A stretch of DNA of 6,191 nucleotides from a virus (taxonomy: Duplodnaviria; Heunggongvirae; Uroviricota; Caudoviricetes): IMG/VR virus record IMGVR_UViG_2703718872_000025. The stretch is one strand, 5' to 3'. Below are positions 1-6,191 of this stretch, piece after piece (position 1 is the first letter of the stretch; the number at the start of each line of letters is the position of its first letter). The notes under the pieces were generated by a model that ran no database searches, had not been told where the DNA came from, and worked only from the letters and a program-made list of their open reading frames with translations. The position numbers and the translations under genes are program-made.

Positions 1-1
1 T

Positions 2-2758
2 GCGGCGAAAACGTCAGAAACGAATGCTTCAGCGTCACAACAATCAGCAGCCACATCTGCATCCACCGCGACCACGAAGGCATCAGAAGCTGCGACCTCG
101 GCCCGGGATGCGGCGGCCTCAAAAGAGGCGGCAAAATCATCAGAAACGAGCGCAGCCTCGAGCGCCAGTAGTGCAGCTTCCTCGGCAACGGCGGCAGGAA
201 ATTCCGCGAAGGCGGCAAAAACGTCCGAGACGAACGCCAGGTCTTCTGAAACGGCAGCGGGACAGAGCGCCTCAGCTGCGGCAGGCTCAAAAACAGCGGC
301 TGCGTCGTCTGCCAGTGCAGCGTCAACAAGTGCCGGGCAGGCCTCAGCCAGTGCCACCGCCGCCGGAAAATCGGCAGAAAGCGCTGCATTGTCCGCTTCA
401 ACAGCCACAACGAAGGCTGGCGAAGCCGCTGAACAGGCCAGCGCAGCAGCGAGGTCTGCATCCGCAGCGAAGACATCCGAAACGAACGCGAAAGCGTCGG
501 AAACCAGCGCAGAATCCTCAAAAACGGCAGCGGCATCGTCTGCCAGTTCGGCGGCGTCATCGGCATCATCTGCGTCTGCTTCAAAAGATGAGGCGACCAG
601 ACAGGCGTCAGCAGCGAAGGGCAGCGCCACGACGGCATCCACGAAGGCGACAGAGGCTGCTGGCAGTGCGACAGCGGCAGCACAGAGCAAAAGTACGGCG
701 GAATCCGCGGCAACGCGCGCCGAGACAGCAGCTAAACGGGCAGAGGATATTGCATCCGCCGTGGCGCTTGAGGATGCAAGTACGACGAAAAAGGGGATAG
801 TACAGCTCAGCAGTGCGACCAACAGTACGTCTGAAACGCTGGCGGCAACGCCAAAGTCAGTAAAATCAGCCTATGACAATGCAGAGAAACGTCTGCAGAA
901 AGACCAGAACGGCGCTGATATACCCGATAAGGGACGCTTCCTGAACAACATTAACGCGGTCAGTAAAACAGACTTTGCTGATAAACGTGGTATGCGTTAT
1001 GTGCGGGTTAACGCTCCTGCAGGTGCAACATCTGGAAAATATTACCCTGTTGTTGTTATGCGTTCTGCTGGCTCAGTAAGCGAACTGGCATCAAGGGTCA
1101 TTATCACCACGGCAACGCGAACCGCAGGCGATCCGATGAATAACTGCGAGTTTAACGGATTTGTTATGCCTGGTGGCTGGACTGACAGGGGGCGTTATGC
1201 TTATGGAATGTTCTGGCAATATCAAAACAATGAACGAGCCATCCACTCAATAATGATGAGTAATAAGGGCGATGATTTGCGCTCTGTGTTCTATGTTGAT
1301 GGCGCTGCTTTCCCTGTTTTTGCGTTTATCGAAGATGGCCTGTCAATATCCGCACCTGGTGCTGATCTCGTTGTTAATGATACGACCTATAAGTTTGGGG
1401 CAACAATTCCAGCGACTGAATGTATCGCGGCGGACGTTATCCTTGATTTTAAGAGTGGGCGTGGTTTTTATGAGTCCCATTCGTTAATCGTTAACGATAA
1501 CTTGTCGTGCAAAAAACTTTTTGCCACAGACGAAATTGTAGCGCGTGGTGGTAATCAGATTCGAATGATAGGTGGGGAGTATGGGGCATTATGGCGTAAT
1601 GATGGCGCTAAAACTTACCTGCTGCTTACCAATCAAGGTGATGTTTATGGTGGCTGGAATACATTAAGACCGTTTGCTATTGATAACGCAACCGGCGAAC
1701 TGGTTATTGGAACCAAACTGTCCGCAAGTCTGAACGGTAACGCATTGACAGCAACAAAGCTGCAAACGCCAAGACTGGTTTCTGGGGTTGAGTTTGATGG
1801 TTCAAAAGATATTACTTTAACCGCCGCGCATGTGGCTGCTTTTGCCAGAAGGGCAACGGATACATATGCCGATGCGGATGGTGGCGTTCCCTGGAATGCC
1901 GAATCAGGCGCTTACAATGTCACCCGCTCTGGCGACAGCTATATTCTGGTTAACTTCTATACCGGAGTCGGAAGTTGCCGGACCCTGCAGATGAAGGCGC
2001 ATTACAGAAATGGAGGTCTGTTCTACCGTTCCTCAAGAGATGGCTATGGTTTTGAGGAAGGCTGGGCAGAAGTTTATACCTCGAAAAATCTTCCACCAGA
2101 AAGCTACCCAGTTGGCGCACCAATTCCGTGGCCATCAGATACCGTTCCGTCTGGTTATGCCCTGATGCAGGGGCAGACTTTTGACAAATCTGCATACCCG
2201 AAACTTGCAGTTGCTTATCCGTCAGGCGTGATCCCTGATATGCGTGGCTGGACGATTAAGGGCAAGCCCGCCAGTGGTCGTGCCGTATTGTCTCAGGAAC
2301 AGGACGGCATTAAATCGCACACCCACAGCGCCAGCGCATCCAGTACGGATTTGGGTACGAAAACCACATCGTCGTTTGATTACGGCACTAAATCTACGAA
2401 TAACACCGGGGCACATACACACAGTGTGAGCGGCTCTACAAACTCGGCTGGAGCACACACACACTCACTAGCCAACGTGAACACGGCTAGTGCTAACTCC
2501 GGTGCTGGTAGTGCATCAACAAGATTGTCTGTTGTGCATAATCAAAACTATGCAACATCATCTGCTGGCGCACATACCCACTCACTGTCCGGCACTGCTG
2601 CAAGCGCAGGTGCACACGCACATACTGTCGGTATTGGTGCTCATACGCACTCGGTTGCGATTGGCTCACATGGACACACCATCACCGTTAACGCTGCTGG
2701 TAACGCGGAAAACACCGTCAAAAACATCGCATTTAACTATATTGTGAGGCTTGCATAA
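2..2758 (+). CDS. stf: Side tail fibre protein Stf, 5-prime partial (true start upstream of window)
   Basis: Frame 2 is open from nt 2 to the TAA at 2756-2758; the ORF-track start at 389 is only an in-frame TTG. Translation shows Ala/Ser/Thr-rich N-terminal repeats (AKTSETNA recurring), a phage-tail-fibre-repeat-like segment ([31 protein letters not shown]) and a C-terminus (GAPIPWPSD...KSHTHS...GAHTHS...[11 protein letters not shown]) that I recognise from memory as the lambda Stf / T4 gp37-type tip. No frameshift interrupts the gene within the window. Confidence 0.92.
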
Positions 2759-3342
2759 TGGCATTCAGAATGAGTGAACAACCACGGACCATAAAAATTT
2801 ATAATCTGCTGGCCGGAACTAATGAATTTATTGGTGAAGGTGACGCATATATTCCGCCTCATACAGGTCTGCCAGCAAACAGTACCGATATTGCACCGCC
2901 AGATATTCCGGCTGGCTTTGTGGCTGTTTTCAACAGTGATGAGGCATCGTGGCATCTCGTTGAAGACCATCGGGGTAAAACCGTCTATGACGTGGCTTCC
3001 GGCGACGCGTTATTTATTTCTGAACTCGGCTCATTACCGGAAAATGTCACCTGGTTATCCCCGGAAGGGGAGTTTCAGAAGTGGAACGGCACAACCTGGG
3101 TGAAAGATGCAGAAGCAGAAAAACTGTTCCGGATCCGGGAGGCGGAAGAAACAAAAAACAGCCTGATGCAGGTAGCCAGTGAGCATATTGCGCCACTTCA
3201 GGATGCTGCAGATCTGGAAATCGCAACGGAGGGAGAAACCTCGTTGCTGGAAGCCTGGAAAAAGTATCGGGTGTTGCTGAACCGTGTTGATACATCAACT
3301 GCACCTGATATTGAGTGGCCTACGAACCCTGTCAGGGAGTAA
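2758..3342 (+). CDS. tfa: Tail fibre assembly protein Tfa (194 aa)
   Basis: ATG at 2758-2760 overlaps the stf stop (TAATG), with GAGG 8 nt upstream; 194 codons ending TAA 3340-3342. Translation [24 protein letters not shown]...[39 protein letters not shown]... closely matches my recollection of lambda Tfa, which is also 194 aa. Confidence 0.92.
3178..3297 (+). repeat. Direct repeat copy A (3-prime end of intact tfa)
   Basis: Aligns without gaps to 4227-4346 with 13 mismatches in 120 nt (~89%), in the same reading frame; similarity stops abruptly on both sides. Confidence 0.85.
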
Positions 3343-3356
3343 TCATTGGGATTATG

Positions 3357-3389
3357 CCGCAGCACGTCTTAAGCAAGAACGTGCTGCGG
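3357..3389. terminator. Stem-loop between convergent tfa and methyltransferase genes; possible weak intrinsic terminator
   Basis: ccgcagcacgtctt (3357-3370), loop aagc, then aagaacgtgctgcgg (3375-3389) gives a 14-bp stem with one bulged A. On the + strand a T6 run (3400-3405) follows about 10 nt later; no U-run follows on the - strand. Non-canonical spacing, hence low confidence. Confidence 0.3.
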
Positions 3390-3396
3390 TTGGATG

Positions 3397-4053
3397 CTAT
3401 TTTTTCCCTGAAGCGGAAAACATTACTACAGTACCTTGAACCTTGGTTTTAACATTCTCGAAATGCTCTGAGAGTATATGTGTTAAGCCTTCTTCGGAAT
3501 CTTTTGTGTTTGAAAAGATGCCTTTCTGATTGTAAATGCGCATCAGTTTTTGACCGAAGCTATTGTGCACAACTCCATCGCCAAGAATTGTGGCTCCGTA
3601 TAGAGTTCCATCGTCAGTTAAGGCCTGCGCCGCATTGCGTATTACACAGCTTTTTGTAGATATATTTCCAGGCAGGCAGTGAAGAAGGTAAAACATGGAA
3701 ATGGAATCAAATTGACCATGTAACGCCGCGGGATAAGGTTCAAAAACATCATGGCTAATTTTATGTTTAATTTTTGATTCCCCAGCCCTTGTAGATGCCG
3801 CGTTCAGGCTAGCTTCGTTCAAATCCATTAAAGATATCAGACTACTCTCAGGTACGTGAGTAAGGTAAAACCCAGTTCCAACACCAATATCCAGATGGTT
3901 GTTACCTAAATGTTCCAGAAAGTGTGGAAGAAGGTGTTCCTTTGTAGGACATCCCCATGCAAGCCGATTTGATACTCCCAAAACCCACCAGTCATAAAGC
4001 TTTAGGGTAAGTGGTGTGTAAATTTTAGCCCCATCATCTGTGTTTTTTTTCAT
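3397..4053 (-). CDS. ybcY: Class I SAM-dependent methyltransferase (Rossmann-fold, small-molecule/protein type), prophage cargo; ybcY-like by genomic context
   Basis: The - strand ORF runs 4065 to 3397 (stop TAG, complement of 3397-3399). Two in-frame ATGs: 4065-4063 with no Shine-Dalgarno, and 4053-4051 preceded by GGTGA at a 5-nt spacing, so I take 4053 as the start (218 aa; 222 aa if 4065 is used). Motif I LDIGVGTG (codons at 3871-3885), acidic residue after the second strand (LMDLNE), motif II-like FDSISMFYLLHCL. Gene symbol is assigned from the tfa / MTase(-) / tfa-fragment synteny recalled for DLP12, not from sequence identity, so treat it as provisional. Confidence 0.75.
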   Translation of the reverse strand: MKKNTDDGAKIYTPLTLKLYDWWVLGVSNRLAWGCPTKEHLLPHFLEHLGNNHLDIGVGTGFYLTHVPESSLISLMDLNEASLNAASTRAGESKIKHKISHDVFEPYPAALHGQFDSISMFYLLHCLPGNISTKSCVIRNAAQALTDDGTLYGATILGDGVVHNSFGQKLMRIYNQKGIFSNTKDSEEGLTHILSEHFENVKTKVQGTVVMFSASGKK

Positions 4054-4121
4054 TAATTTCACCATGTTATAGTTTTATTTGTGAATTAAATCAATTATGG
4101 CGATGAATTACAAGGGGTTAA

Positions 4122-4427
4122 ATGCTGCCGCAGCATAGCGATATTGAAATAGCCTGGTATGCTTCGATACAGCAGGAGCCGAATAGCTGGAAGACCGTCA
4201 CCACACAGTTCTACATCCAGGAATTCAGTGAGTATATTGCGCCACTGCAGGATGCTGTAGATCTGGAAATCGCAACGGAGGAAGAAAGATCGTTGCTGGA
4301 GGCATGGAATAAATATCGGGTATTGTTGAATCGTGTTGATACATCAGTAGCTCTGGGTATGAAGCTGTTTGTAACTCATGTTACAGTAACAGCCATTACT
4401 ATCTCGAAGGTGCAAAATGTATATTGA
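4122..4427 (+). CDS. Tail fibre assembly protein C-terminal fragment (tfaX-like remnant; probably non-functional)
   Basis: 101-codon ORF with ATG at 4122 and AGGGG 5 nt upstream. Only residues ~36-75 ([40 protein letters not shown]) resemble Tfa; the flanking sequence is unrelated. Contains direct-repeat copy B. Confidence 0.5.
4227..4346 (+). repeat. Direct repeat copy B (inside tfa remnant)
   Basis: Partner of 3178-3297; 107 of 120 nt identical, ungapped, same frame. Confidence 0.85.
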
Positions 4428-4554
4428 TTTGATATTTTATAAATTTACTTCGAATCTGGCACGTCAACTTTTGATTAAAGTAATATCAGTTTTCGGCGAA
4501 AAAAGGACCGTGTACATGAGACGATTTCATACAAGAATAACAAAAATATGAATA

Positions 4555-4590
4555 TGCTCCCAATGCAATATATGTTTTGCATTGGGAGCA
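4555..4590 (-). terminator. Probable Rho-independent terminator of the hydrolase gene
   Basis: Perfect inverted repeat gctcccaatgcaa (4556-4568) / ttgcattgggagc (4577-4589) with an 8-nt loop, extendable by one T-A pair. On the - strand it begins 20 nt after the hydrolase stop codon and is followed by the U-rich stretch auauucauauuuuuguuauuc. Confidence 0.45.
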
Positions 4591-4610
4591 AATAGCGGAA
4601 TATTTTGAAA

Positions 4611-6095
4611 TTATTGTATTTCTGCTTCAGAATTTCCTGGGCAGTATATATTTTCTATTTTTTGTGGAGTGATCAGGTGATGTACAACTGCTTTATCTAC
4701 ACATAAATTAACTCCGGTGAGAGCTAATGTATGCCCATCACCATTTATTGTTAGTAACGGGCTGGAAAATTTCTCTGCCATCTTACGGGCATTAATCCAG
4801 GGCGTTGTTGGGTCGTATTTGTGTGCTACAAACAGTAAACCAGAGGGCAGAACAGTATTTTTCAGGCGAGTTTTGTTCAGGTCGCTATGTATTGGCCATA
4901 ATTCACAAAAATCAGGTGAATCGGAACGTCCATTGTCAAAGTTAATAGCCGGGAAGGCATTCGCAAGAGCGTCTTTTCGGGATTTTCGCTCTTCTGGTGT
5001 TAATTGCTCATCCCCCTGATCTACACAGAGGATTACCCCCGAAGCATCGCTTGACTCTTCTGAGGCTATCGGAGCACTGAGCGCAGTTTCAATTTCATTA
5101 CTGACAATCCCCTGAGAGAACTGGCGTATGGCAGTTGCAAGGGTTGGCCATGATGAACGCCATAGCAGAAGGTCTGTTGTTAATGATATGAGTTCACCTG
5201 AAGATATATTTTCTCCCTTACTGTCTAATAAAGGTTTGTGATGTAATTTTGATAATAGCTCATGGAAGTGAGTTATTGCCTTATCTCTGTCTGAAGAAAG
5301 CGGGCAACTTTTTGTACGCGCACACCAGGATGCAAAGCGATCAAACGTTTCCTGATAACTCTGTGCCTGTTTGAGTTGCCATGTGAAGTTGTCCTCCAGG
5401 TCATCGATATCGACGACTCCATCAAGAACGATAGATCTTACGTTGTAGGGAAAACGTTCTGCATATAAGGCTGCAATTTGAGTTCCATACGAATACGCCA
5501 CGGCTGTCAGTTGTTTATCCCCCAAGGCTTGCCTAATACGATCAATATCGTATACAGCCTCGTTAGAGCCGATATGGCGAATGACTTCGGCTCCGGTATT
5601 ATGGATACAGGCATTAATTTTATTTAATACTTGTTGCTTTTCGGTTATGTTTTCCTGAGTCTCTGTATCTGATTGCCGGCAGTTTATTGTCGGAGTGGAC
5701 TGTCCGACGCCTCGAGGATCAAATCCAATAATATCCCATGACTCACGAAGATTTGTGACTGGCCAGTCAAAGTTAATATAAGGATTTATGCCTGGTAACC
5801 CGGGACCACCACTTATTATCAGGATACTTCCTTTATGCTTGCTTTTTGCCGGCAATTTTGTCAACGCTAGTTTGACTTGTGATTTTTTTTCATAAGAAGC
5901 ATCTCCGCCTGTGTCTGTATATTTTAATGGAACAGACAAATAACCACATAGTAAGTCAGGAGACGGTTTTTCCTCACCAAACCAGTGGTTGAATTGACTG
6001 GCCATACAGGATTGCCACTGTATCTGCTGGGCAGATACGGTTACTGGTAGAAGTAACGTTAAAACAACTTTGAAATGAGTAATTATTTTTCGCAT
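4611..6095 (-). CDS. Secreted/periplasmic alpha/beta-hydrolase, S33 (prolyl/tripeptidyl aminopeptidase, TAP-like) family serine hydrolase
   Basis: 494 codons from ATG (complement of 6093-6095) to TAA (complement of 4611-4613). N-terminus MRKIITHFKVVLTLLLPVTVSA/QQ looks like a Sec signal peptide with no lipobox. Ordered motifs: IISGGPGLPG (oxyanion-hole region), GFDPRGVGQS, AYSYG nucleophile elbow (Ser codon 5490-5492), then KYDPTTP and GDGHT near the C-terminus as candidate Asp and His of the triad. Confidence 0.85.
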   Translation of the reverse strand: MRKIITHFKVVLTLLLPVTVSAQQIQWQSCMASQFNHWFGEEKPSPDLLCGYLSVPLKYTDTGGDASYEKKSQVKLALTKLPAKSKHKGSILIISGGPGLPGINPYINFDWPVTNLRESWDIIGFDPRGVGQSTPTINCRQSDTETQENITEKQQVLNKINACIHNTGAEVIRHIGSNEAVYDIDRIRQALGDKQLTAVAYSYGTQIAALYAERFPYNVRSIVLDGVVDIDDLEDNFTWQLKQAQSYQETFDRFASWCARTKSCPLSSDRDKAITHFHELLSKLHHKPLLDSKGENISSGELISLTTDLLLWRSSWPTLATAIRQFSQGIVSNEIETALSAPIASEESSDASGVILCVDQGDEQLTPEERKSRKDALANAFPAINFDNGRSDSPDFCELWPIHSDLNKTRLKNTVLPSGLLFVAHKYDPTTPWINARKMAEKFSSPLLTINGDGHTLALTGVNLCVDKAVVHHLITPQKIENIYCPGNSEAEIQ

Positions 6096-6191
6096 TGTGT
6101 CTCTGAATATCGGAATAAAGATAAAATTTGAATATATTGAGGTCTTGTGTTGCGGTAAGAGATTACTGGATTTGCCCCTATATTTCCAGAC

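Follow-up and report, generated by a model that had tools for sequence, protein, structure and literature searches.

Modular evolution, with mosaic 'novel joints' and morons, has reportedly been described for the lambdoid phages by Botstein, Hendrix, Juhala and Casjens, and Haggard-Ljungquist in 1992 and Sandmeier in 1994 are reported to have found that segments of tail-fibre and tfa genes pass horizontally between lambda, P2, Mu, P1 and the T-even phages. The locus analysed here resembles the lambdoid mosaics in having a gene fragment at a non-homologous joint and lower-GC autonomous cargo between late-operon genes, and in that its flanking modules have been exchanged between phages; there is no essential difference. 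The likeness to tail-fibre exchange is that the conserved C-terminal domain of Tfa provides homology between different fibre modules, with a crossover at position 4300. However, the distal unit exchanged here is non-tail cargo (appY versus a hydrolase versus int) and not a set of receptor-binding domains. A further parallel is the tfaD-ybcY-tfaX region of DLP12 in Escherichia coli K-12 MG1655 (b0561-b0563), which has the same locus, gene order, orientation and chimeric orfN'::tfa' reading frame. In the literature on ybcY and tfaX, no paper on a repeat or a chimeric origin was found, and the relevant items concerned promoter and H-NS data and the ompT context.

The window, meaning the whole stretch of 6,191 nucleotides that was analysed, is the stf-tfa-ybcY-tfaX end of a lambdoid prophage at the DLP12 site. 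Genome L001 was 99.98% identical to it, and in the closest genome among the matches listed the equivalent of the window was followed by ompT-envY-ybcH-nfrA. K-12 was found to be colinear with window positions 2904-4351 at 96.9% identity (NC_000913, 581,659-583,104), and 99-100% identical over 3298-4299. The chromosomal neighbourhood also matches that of the DLP12 locus (ompT, envY, ybcH and nfrA distally, integration on the argU side), consistent with orthology, and strain 536 carries tRNA-Arg and an int remnant at this locus. An earlier note on this DNA had likened the layout to tfaD-ybcY-tfaX and had taken the upstream tfa and the methyltransferase gene to be intact, and both statements agree with the downstream genes, the K-12 colinearity and the reading frames found here. 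K-12 has ybcY as a pseudogene and a tfaD that lacks its 5' part, whereas stf (which starts upstream of the window), tfa and the methyltransferase gene are all complete or intact here. The K-12 remnant is also of a different haplotype from 4300 onwards, with appY directly distal to tfaX where the window has an alpha/beta hydrolase module, and K-12 tfaX carries a TGA and extends to the equivalent of tfa position 3322. The core unit was present in 3798 of 5426 complete E. coli genomes (~70%), and also in sequenced lambdoid phages.

The 3' two-thirds of the stf side tail fibre gene occupy positions 1-2758 on the plus strand (Pfam Gp34_trimer, Phage_fiber_2, Collar and Phage_fiber; annotated stfR in L001, 16697-20059). 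This gene is followed by tfa (2758-3342, plus strand), which encodes an intact tail fibre assembly chaperone of 194 aa matching Caudo_TAP (PF02413; E 9.6e-44) over profile positions 1-130 of 131, and which is annotated as intact in the closest genome among the matches listed (WP_000885603.1). Residues 127-191 of Tfa align with TfaU of phage Mu (PDB 5yvq), and this alignment, together with PMC9608196, assigns the first copy of the repeat (R1; 3178-3297, plus strand; 3166-3297 in a longer version), which covers codons 141-180, to the conserved C-terminal helical domain. A GC-rich conserved hairpin (3356-3391; MFE -28.5 kcal/mol, z = -4.5), located just 3' of tfa, is a recurrent module boundary, and a terminator scan did not list it among canonical intrinsic terminators.

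The methyltransferase gene (3397-4065, minus strand) is an intact ORF of 222 aa for the class I SAM-dependent methyltransferase YbcY (Pfam Methyltransf_12, 23, 25 and 11), and as homologues are 218-221 aa long, translation probably begins at Met5 (4053). Sequence searches of NCBIfam and PDB gave weak resemblance to UbiG and to juvenile-hormone-acid methyltransferases, of a generic small-molecule methyltransferase kind. In Enterobacter and Salmonella, homologues of 56-65% identity occur on the chromosome as stand-alone genes, and the GC content is ~41% versus ~50% for tfa, hence the gene appears to be captured cargo, a 'moron'. The hairpin that flanks the unit is stable, and its promoter is the one described for K-12 in the literature. 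In K-12, the spacer between ybcY and tfaX contains divergent sigma-70 promoters and is bound by H-NS (PMC3946193), and in the corresponding spacer of the window (4066-4121) the ybcY promoter hexamers TTGATT and TATAAC are present as reverse complement. A consensus promoter and terminator scan of 3250-4700 gave nothing above shuffled expectation.

The ORF on the far side of this spacer (4122-4427, plus strand), recorded in RefSeq as a partial tfa pseudogene, was found to be a chimera. Its first 35 codons (4122-4226) are, from tblastn and N-terminal alignment, the 5' fragment of a gene, here orfN, belonging to a 79-aa family of Enterobacterales prophages. The fragment matched Klebsiella phage Kp4882-3 and phage Ayreon in tblastn, and a search with the 79-aa Klebsiella homologue as query found 125 members. 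Fused to it in frame is the second copy of the repeat (R2; 4227-4346, plus strand; 4215-4346 in the longer version), an internal fragment of a second tfa that corresponds to K-12 tfaX. Residues 31-77 alone match Caudo_TAP, at profile positions 75-121, hence the product is not a full-length member of the Tfa family, and as tfaX is an orfN/tfa fusion the label "tail fiber assembly protein" is misleading. An intact orfN of 79/80 aa is found divergent to a methyltransferase gene with 90% identity (aa) in Citrobacter freundii (loci L023-L025), in DNA that is 91.6% identical to window 3385-4208. Since orfN is whole there, next to and divergent from this methyltransferase gene, R2 begins on its left at an illegitimate joint, with the patchy microhomology seen at 4209-4227, and is not the footprint of an insertion. 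On its right, R2 is followed by an AT-rich spacer (4347-4610; GC 33%), into which the ORF reads through to 4427 and which includes a hairpin terminator (4552-4593; inverted repeat I3 and a terminator-like call). The alpha/beta hydrolase gene (4611-6095, minus strand; 494 aa; Pfam Abhydrolase_1 and Abhydrolase_4) then occupies the position of appY in K-12, and carries this annotation in L001 as well as in phages 2G7b and Turner.

A repeat search identified a single long direct repeat in the window, 3166-3297 versus 4215-4346, of 132 nt with 87% identity and an offset of 1049. In ungapped counts, 115 of 132 positions (87.1%) matched in this longer version and 107 of 120 (89.2%) between 3178-3297 and 4227-4346, and the BLAST E-value for the pair was 1e-40. 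The start at 3178/4227 is to be preferred because the 12 nt that open the longer R2 (4215-4226) derive from orfN and resemble tfa through microhomology alone. In the flanks, identity along this diagonal drops to a random level (30% upstream; 42% over 45 nt and 30% over 103 nt downstream), and a weak, non-significant likeness to the tfa 3' end may persist beyond 4346. Each copy is in frame with its own ORF, encoding the peptides that had been read from the sequence before, and the self-comparison bears out the description in the earlier note of in-frame, ungapped direct repeats of ~120 bp and ~89% identity with sharp ends and a methyltransferase gene on the opposite strand between them. The 13 differences from 3178/4227 onwards comprise six non-synonymous and seven synonymous changes, and as seven of the 13 are synonymous, this suggests that the divergence built up while both tfa genes were functional and not after a recent duplication in situ. 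It is very probable that R1 and R2 come from two different tfa genes, each being the segment for the conserved C-terminal domain.

The reading that we favour, to which we give a probability of about 80%, is that the locus carries the scar of a recombination event, in which the captured methyltransferase gene separates tfa from 120 nt left over from the interior of a second allele, tfa'. A lambdoid phage would have carried a captured chromosomal methyltransferase gene directly after the tfa hairpin, divergently paired with orfN, and illegitimate recombination at a few bases of microhomology to another lambdoid genome would have joined codon 35 of orfN to approximately codon 141 of the tfa' of that genome. 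The predicted product, stf-tfa-hairpin-methyltransferase-orfN'::'tfa'-hairpin, is extant in phage 204576, which is identical to the window up to 4346. From there this phage has the true 3' end of a tfa gene, stop codon and hairpin included, which makes the repeat 227 nt long, and int-xis come next. Phage Ayreon has kept the tfa 3' end, the hairpin and a decayed orfN, and is without R2. The distal part would later have been replaced in two ways, in the window lineage by the hydrolase-ompT module, joined sharply at 4346/4347, and in the K-12 type by a homologous crossover at ~4300 with an appY-linked tfa allele. We infer the order of events (204576-type first, then replacement by the hydrolase or appY) by a parsimony argument, and the second parent too, as no intact tfa with the R2-specific allele (GTAT, CTGCAGG, GAAAGATCG and GAGGCATGGAATAAA) was present among the alleles sampled. 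AR_0128 and tfaQ of TUM14759, which were nearest to R2 in the genome search, are R1-like at the diagnostic sites and were rejected as sources of this allele. Phage ev099 was likewise rejected as a cassette-less ancestor of the K-12 type, its AraC-family gene region having no DNA similarity to the appY region of K-12.

Taken strictly, the reading in the earlier note would mean that homologous recombination in the tfa segment brought in or swapped the cassette, with the repeat edges as module junctions. Its view of the conserved tfa segment as an exchange point fits the comparisons, in which the block is used for exchange. The window and K-12 have no differences over 4215-4299 (100% identity) and 14 in 52 positions over 4300-4351 (73% identity), placing a breakpoint between the hydrolase-linked and appY-linked haplotypes at 4300, within R2. 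Other tail-fibre modules are joined inside R1, at 3197-3223, in Ayreon, 2G7b, ev243 and PhiR49_1, and the right edge of R2 at 4346/4347, the joint to the hydrolase module, is a junction relative to phage 204576. However, the left edge of R2 adjoins the unrelated orfN fragment and not the 5' region of tfa, an arrangement that homologous exchange cannot yield. The recurrent junctions near R1 fall at 3320, 3357 and 3391. In pin-bearing phages similarity to the window resumes at 3357, in lambda-type phages it lasts until 3391, and the Citrobacter homology begins at 3385. None of the genomes compared has a junction at the right edge of R1 (3297), which the repeat overruns in both 204576 and K-12. 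Exchange at the repeat edges is an unlikely origin for the cassette, and those edges are the truncation points of the remnant and nothing more. The starts of three independent tfa 3' relics fall within a span of ~46 nt (R2, equivalent of 3178; Ayreon, ~3197-3210; 2G7b, ev243 and PhiR49_1, 3223). On this basis lambdoid phages might favour the last ~120-165 nt of tfa and the hairpin as a place to join modules, either as a recombination hot spot where the conserved C-terminal domain begins or as a segment retained to insulate or terminate the late operon, but we consider this unlikely.

Tandem duplication of the tfa 3' end in situ, followed by insertion of the methyltransferase gene and orfN between the copies and then divergence, would explain the direct orientation and shared frame of R1 and R2, as well as the presence of the tfa 3' end and hairpin in both copies in phage 204576. 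It is nevertheless very unlikely, as the copies differ by 11-13%, with about half of the changes synonymous, whereas the whole region is 97-100% identical across thousands of genomes. The methyltransferase-orfN pair is contiguous elsewhere, orfN is cut exactly at the joint, and extra steps are needed where a single illegitimate crossover between two genomes suffices.

Derivation of R2 from an invertible tail-fibre segment of the Pin/Gin/Cin type, with an alternative tfa, is suggested by the pin-type invertase found between tfa and the methyltransferase gene in Kati, Turner, PhiR68_2, 2H10 and PhiR42_1. However, R2 is direct and not inverted, no stf' fragment accompanies it, and the window contains neither an invertase gene nor a Din-type crossover site at up to 3 mismatches to a consensus pattern. 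The pin block replaces only window 3321-3356, upstream of the methyltransferase gene, and neither inverted variants of the 3357-4346 block nor flanking crossover sites were seen among the genomes, making this origin extremely improbable. It is just as hard to credit that the repeat is under selection because the 101-aa product of the chimeric ORF is functional, for example as a dominant-negative Tfa trimerisation domain that disturbs the assembly of tail fibres in superinfecting phages. No stop interrupts the frame in the hydrolase-type haplotype, the unit is kept in ~70% of complete E. coli genomes, the segment retained is the conserved trimerisation domain, and a sigma-70 promoter facing tfaX has been reported in K-12 (PMC3946193). 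However, the K-12/appY haplotype has an in-frame TGA, the copy in 2G7b has a 7-nt deletion, strain 536 has the methyltransferase gene without the ORF, the last 26 codons are read-through into apparently unrelated AT-rich DNA, and the spacer is bound by H-NS in K-12 (PMC3946193). A transposon- or integron-type cassette was rejected, the unit having no transposase or integrase gene and the repeats being 120-132 nt of coding sequence from two tfa alleles that are only 87-89% identical.

Under the recombination-scar reading, the consequence of the relic is structural, in that it supplies homology in direct orientation. Homologous recombination between R1 and R2 (120-160 nt, 87-89% identity, direct) would delete the 1,049-bp methyltransferase cassette and leave a hybrid tfa, a loss that had been anticipated from the repeats. 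Genomes EM18-18-42 and WGI31CT each have one 576-nt tfa, annotated 'internal stop', with appY directly next. This tfa is of the R1 type until CACTTCAGG and of the tfaX type from GAAAGATCG on, including the tfaX TGA, and the crossover therefore lies within a ~40-nt identical stretch. The predicted deletion is thus found in at least two genomes, which may represent a single event, as the two loci are identical from 6017 to 6970. The hybrid repeat, the crossover in an identical stretch and the loss of 1,049 bp are as in direct-repeat deletion by homologous recombination (RecA or Red), but the product differs from the classic case in being a disrupted tfa with the stop codon of the relic, and deletion in the appY lineage therefore also kills the chaperone gene. 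The hydrolase-type deletion product, sought with a synthetic chimera (2904-3165 joined to 4215-4650) at ≥80% coverage, was found in 0 of 5426 complete E. coli genomes.

The finding is ordinary, essentially known mosaicism in a very common DLP12-type lambdoid prophage, and leaves current understanding unchallenged. Its practical value is modest. It explains the K-12 pseudogene tfaX, a feature of ~70% of complete E. coli genomes, as 35 codons of an unrelated prophage gene followed by 40 codons of tfa. It is also a well-documented example of mosaic evolution, with the parental arrangement (Citrobacter and Ayreon), the presumed primary recombinant (204576), the module swaps and the natural repeat-mediated deletion all in sequenced genomes. 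The cargo adjacent to ompT (the methyltransferase gene, appY or the hydrolase gene) varies by recombination at the relic, which bears on strain differences at the ompT locus.

Outside the finding, the window departs from all relatives compared at 6166, and ends with the first 25 nt of an IS2 copy (6167-6191, plus strand). This 25-mer is multi-copy and forms one end of a 1.33-kb element that encodes InsC/InsD.

A repeat search of the window found a single long direct repeat, 3166-3297 against 4215-4346 (132 nt, 87% identity, offset 1049), with copy 1 inside the intact tfa gene (2758-3342) and copy 2 in an open reading frame at 4122-4427, the equivalent of K-12 tfaX. The segments 3178-3297 and 4227-4346 are ungapped, identical at 107 of 120 positions (89%) and in frame within both ORFs, and the pair has a BLAST E-value of 1e-40, with identity on the same diagonal falling to 30% upstream, and to 42% over 45 nt and 30% over 103 nt downstream. 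This confirmed the in-frame repeat of about 120 nt described in an earlier note, and likewise its placement of a methyltransferase between the copies on the opposite strand (class I SAM-dependent, 222 aa; 3397-4065, minus strand). The repeat encodes Tfa residues 141-180, which belong to the C-terminal portion alignable with Mu TfaU. That portion is described as the conserved helical trimerisation domain, with fibre binding assigned to a variable N-terminal domain (PMC9608196); of all parts of tfa, this segment is therefore the one most likely to remain recognisable across alleles and to supply homology from one phage to another. Duplication of the tfa 3' end in situ fits poorly as an origin for copy 2, as it requires more steps and the copies have diverged by 11-13%, with about half of this synonymous.

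Positions 1-6166 are 99.98% identical to Escherichia coli 2012EL-2448, where the matching DNA forms the right-hand end of an almost complete lambdoid prophage. The genes there run from portal through J, then lom, stf, tfa, the methyltransferase, a partial tfa and the alpha/beta hydrolase, and are followed by ompT, envY, ybcH and nfrA, which places the locus at the DLP12 position. In the closest genome (L001), tail assembly gene T is interrupted by an IS3-family insertion (5962-7612), and the prophage, although complete-looking, is therefore probably defective. DLP12 of K-12 MG1655 is colinear with 2904-4351 at 96.9%, spanning tfaD, ybcY and tfaX; the resemblance to this arrangement pointed out in the note is thus one of orthologous loci, and tfa and the methyltransferase are, as also proposed, intact here, together with stf. 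The core (3357-4300) was found in 3798 of 5426 complete E. coli genomes at ≥80% coverage and the full 2700-4650 arrangement in 1127, and lambdoid phages PhiR26_1, PhiR29_1, PhiR29_2, PhiR30_1, Turner, Kati, PhiR68_2, 2G7b, ev243, PhiR49_1 and 204576 carry the arrangement. What is seen here is mosaicism of the ordinary lambdoid kind, at a locus that already carries annotation.

The methyltransferase matched only generic class I families and weakly resembled UbiG and juvenile-hormone-acid methyltransferases. Its homologues in Enterobacter and Salmonella (56-65% identity) are stand-alone chromosomal genes, and its GC content is ~41%, against ~50% for tfa; judged from sequence, it is best seen as a putative captured host gene (moron). 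Strain 536 retains it beside ompT, without copy 2. In K-12, a genomic SELEX study reported divergent sigma-70 promoters and H-NS binding for the spacer between ybcY and tfaX (PMC3946193). The -10 hexamer given there for K-12 ybcY directly adjoins the annotated start at 4065 (region 4053-4071); homologues are 218-221 aa long, and the true start is probably Met5 at 4053.

In the 4122-4427 ORF, the Pfam match is confined to residues 31-77 (Caudo_TAP profile positions 75-121). The first 35 residues are not Tfa sequence; their homology is with the N-terminal part of a 79-aa family, here orfN (5' fragment at 4122-4226), which is common across Enterobacterales prophages (125 matches), has no Pfam domain and lies upstream of an umuD-like (S24 peptidase-like) ORF. 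Members are called "DNA polymerase V" in NCBI records (L015 4004-4243; L023 3699-3941; proteins P0001-P0120), a name probably carried over, since the gene, which lacks any Pfam domain, merely precedes the umuD-like ORF. It is unlikely that the chimeric ORF encodes a functional protein, because it is broken by a stop codon in K-12, has lost 7 nt in 2G7b and is missing from strain 536.

An intact orfN (79/80 aa) was found divergent beside a methyltransferase 90% identical to that of the window in two Citrobacter freundii loci (L023, L024) and a contig (L025), with 91.6% DNA identity to 3385-4208; in this pair the parental cassette is seen uninterrupted. Comparison of orfN (GTCCAGGAACTGAGCAAGG), tfa (ATGCAGGTAGCCAGTGAGCAT) and the window (ATCCAGGAATTCAGTGAGTAT) across the joint indicates that the left end of copy 2 would have formed by an illegitimate crossover at patchy microhomology (4209-4227); the extra 12 nt of the 132-nt repeat are orfN/tfa microhomology at this joint. 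Phage Ayreon has no copy 2, but does carry the hairpin, a relic of the tfa 3' end (from ~3197) and a decayed orfN (CAG>TAG) extending past 4208, so a lambdoid phage, too, once had the parental cassette downstream of its tfa. Ayreon also has a clean deletion of almost the entire methyltransferase gene, equivalent to 3433-4091 (L014 3974/3971), leaving the last 12 methyltransferase codons and the upstream spacer.

The cassette junctions had been expected at the repeat edges. However, in the pin-bearing phages 2H10, Kati, Turner, PhiR68_2 and PhiR42_1 the match to the window ends at 3320 and resumes at 3357, with a ~1.76-kb pin/ynaE block between, in lambda-type phages it runs to 3391, and Citrobacter homology begins at 3385. 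As none of these junctions meets the right edge of copy 1 (3297), the repeat edges are the truncation points of a relic rather than the borders of an inserted cassette; the cassette is bounded instead by the illegitimate joint and the stable hairpin following tfa (3356-3391; -28.5 kcal/mol, z = -4.5). Both the orfN joint and the positions of these junctions contradict a strict origin by homologous exchange. That copy 2 is the relic of an invertible segment is excluded by its direct orientation, the location of the pin block and the lack of crossover sites in the window (Din-type consensus, ≤3 mismatches).

Phages with unrelated fibre modules have their joints within copy 1, at 3223 in 2G7b, ev243 and PhiR49_1 and at ~3197-3210 in Ayreon. 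With copy 2 (3178 equivalent), three independent tfa 3' relics start within ~46 nt (window 3178-3223; L014, the Ayreon locus, 3739; L003, another compared locus, 5001), a clustering with a probability, computed post hoc, of ~0.02 under uniform breakpoints; the truncations in K-12 tfaD (2904) and strain 536 (~2851) fall outside it. This could reflect a hot spot, or selection keeping the tfa 3' end and hairpin. A 45-aa RefSeq hypothetical protein (WP_001309429.1; 3315-3452) that spans the tfa stop codon and the hairpin and reaches into the 3' end of the methyltransferase gene looks spurious.

Copy 2 has three 3' forms. Phage 204576 equals the window up to 4346 and continues as a true tfa 3' end with its stop codon, then the hairpin, with int and xis next; its repeat is 227 nt long at 89%, and it looks like the primary recombinant. 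2G7b and Turner share with the window a sharp change past 4346 to AT-rich DNA (33% GC) leading toward the hydrolase gene. Between the chimeric ORF and that gene, a near-perfect inverted repeat of 17 bp (4552-4593) was called as a minus-strand terminator, and so is a predicted hydrolase terminator. In K-12, Kati and PhiR68_2 the sequence is tfa-like up to the equivalent of 3322, has TGG replaced by TGA, and is followed by appY. Against the window, this last form shows 100% identity over 4215-4299 and 73% over 4300-4351 (14 of 52 positions differ), and as divergence jumps from 0% to 27%, there is a recombination breakpoint at 4300, inside the conserved tfa block. The proposal of modular exchange at this segment thus stands in that the block serves exchange, but the cassette borders lie elsewhere than at the repeat edges.

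The expected R1/R2 deletion products were built as synthetic queries and searched in the 5426 complete E. coli genomes. The window (hydrolase) type was found in none at ≥80% coverage, and the K-12 (appY) type had a one-piece end-to-end match (98.2%) in at least two, EM18-18-42 and WGI31CT, a minimum drawn from the 25 best matches listed. Each carries one 576-nt tfa, annotated "internal stop", with appY directly after. Alignment showed this tfa to be a hybrid, of copy-1 type on the left (ATGCAGGTAGCC...CACTTCAGG) and of tfaX type from GAAAGATCG on, including the tfaX TGA, which places the crossover within a ~40-nt identical stretch. Both genomes are read as putative deletion products, because an ancestral pre-cassette gene is not expected to join the copy-1 diagnostic bases with the relic stop codon. 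They show no difference from the hybrid region on and 19 differing sites upstream of it, and represent at least one deletion event, possibly two. The suggestion that the repeats can mediate loss of the cassette was thereby borne out.

The last 25 nt of the window (6167-6191; TGGATTTGCCCCTATATTTCCAGAC) differ from every related genome and phage compared. This 25-mer occurs in multiple copies in genomes of E. coli and Shigella and forms the end of a 1.33-kb element with IS2-type InsC/InsD genes, so in the source strain an IS2 copy sits between the hydrolase gene and ompT. At the other end, the N-terminal part of stf (1-900) contains 21-nt-periodic Ala/Ser/Lys-rich repeats (families D2-D8), and its C-terminal part (2430-2700) GAHTHS-type Phage_fiber repeats.
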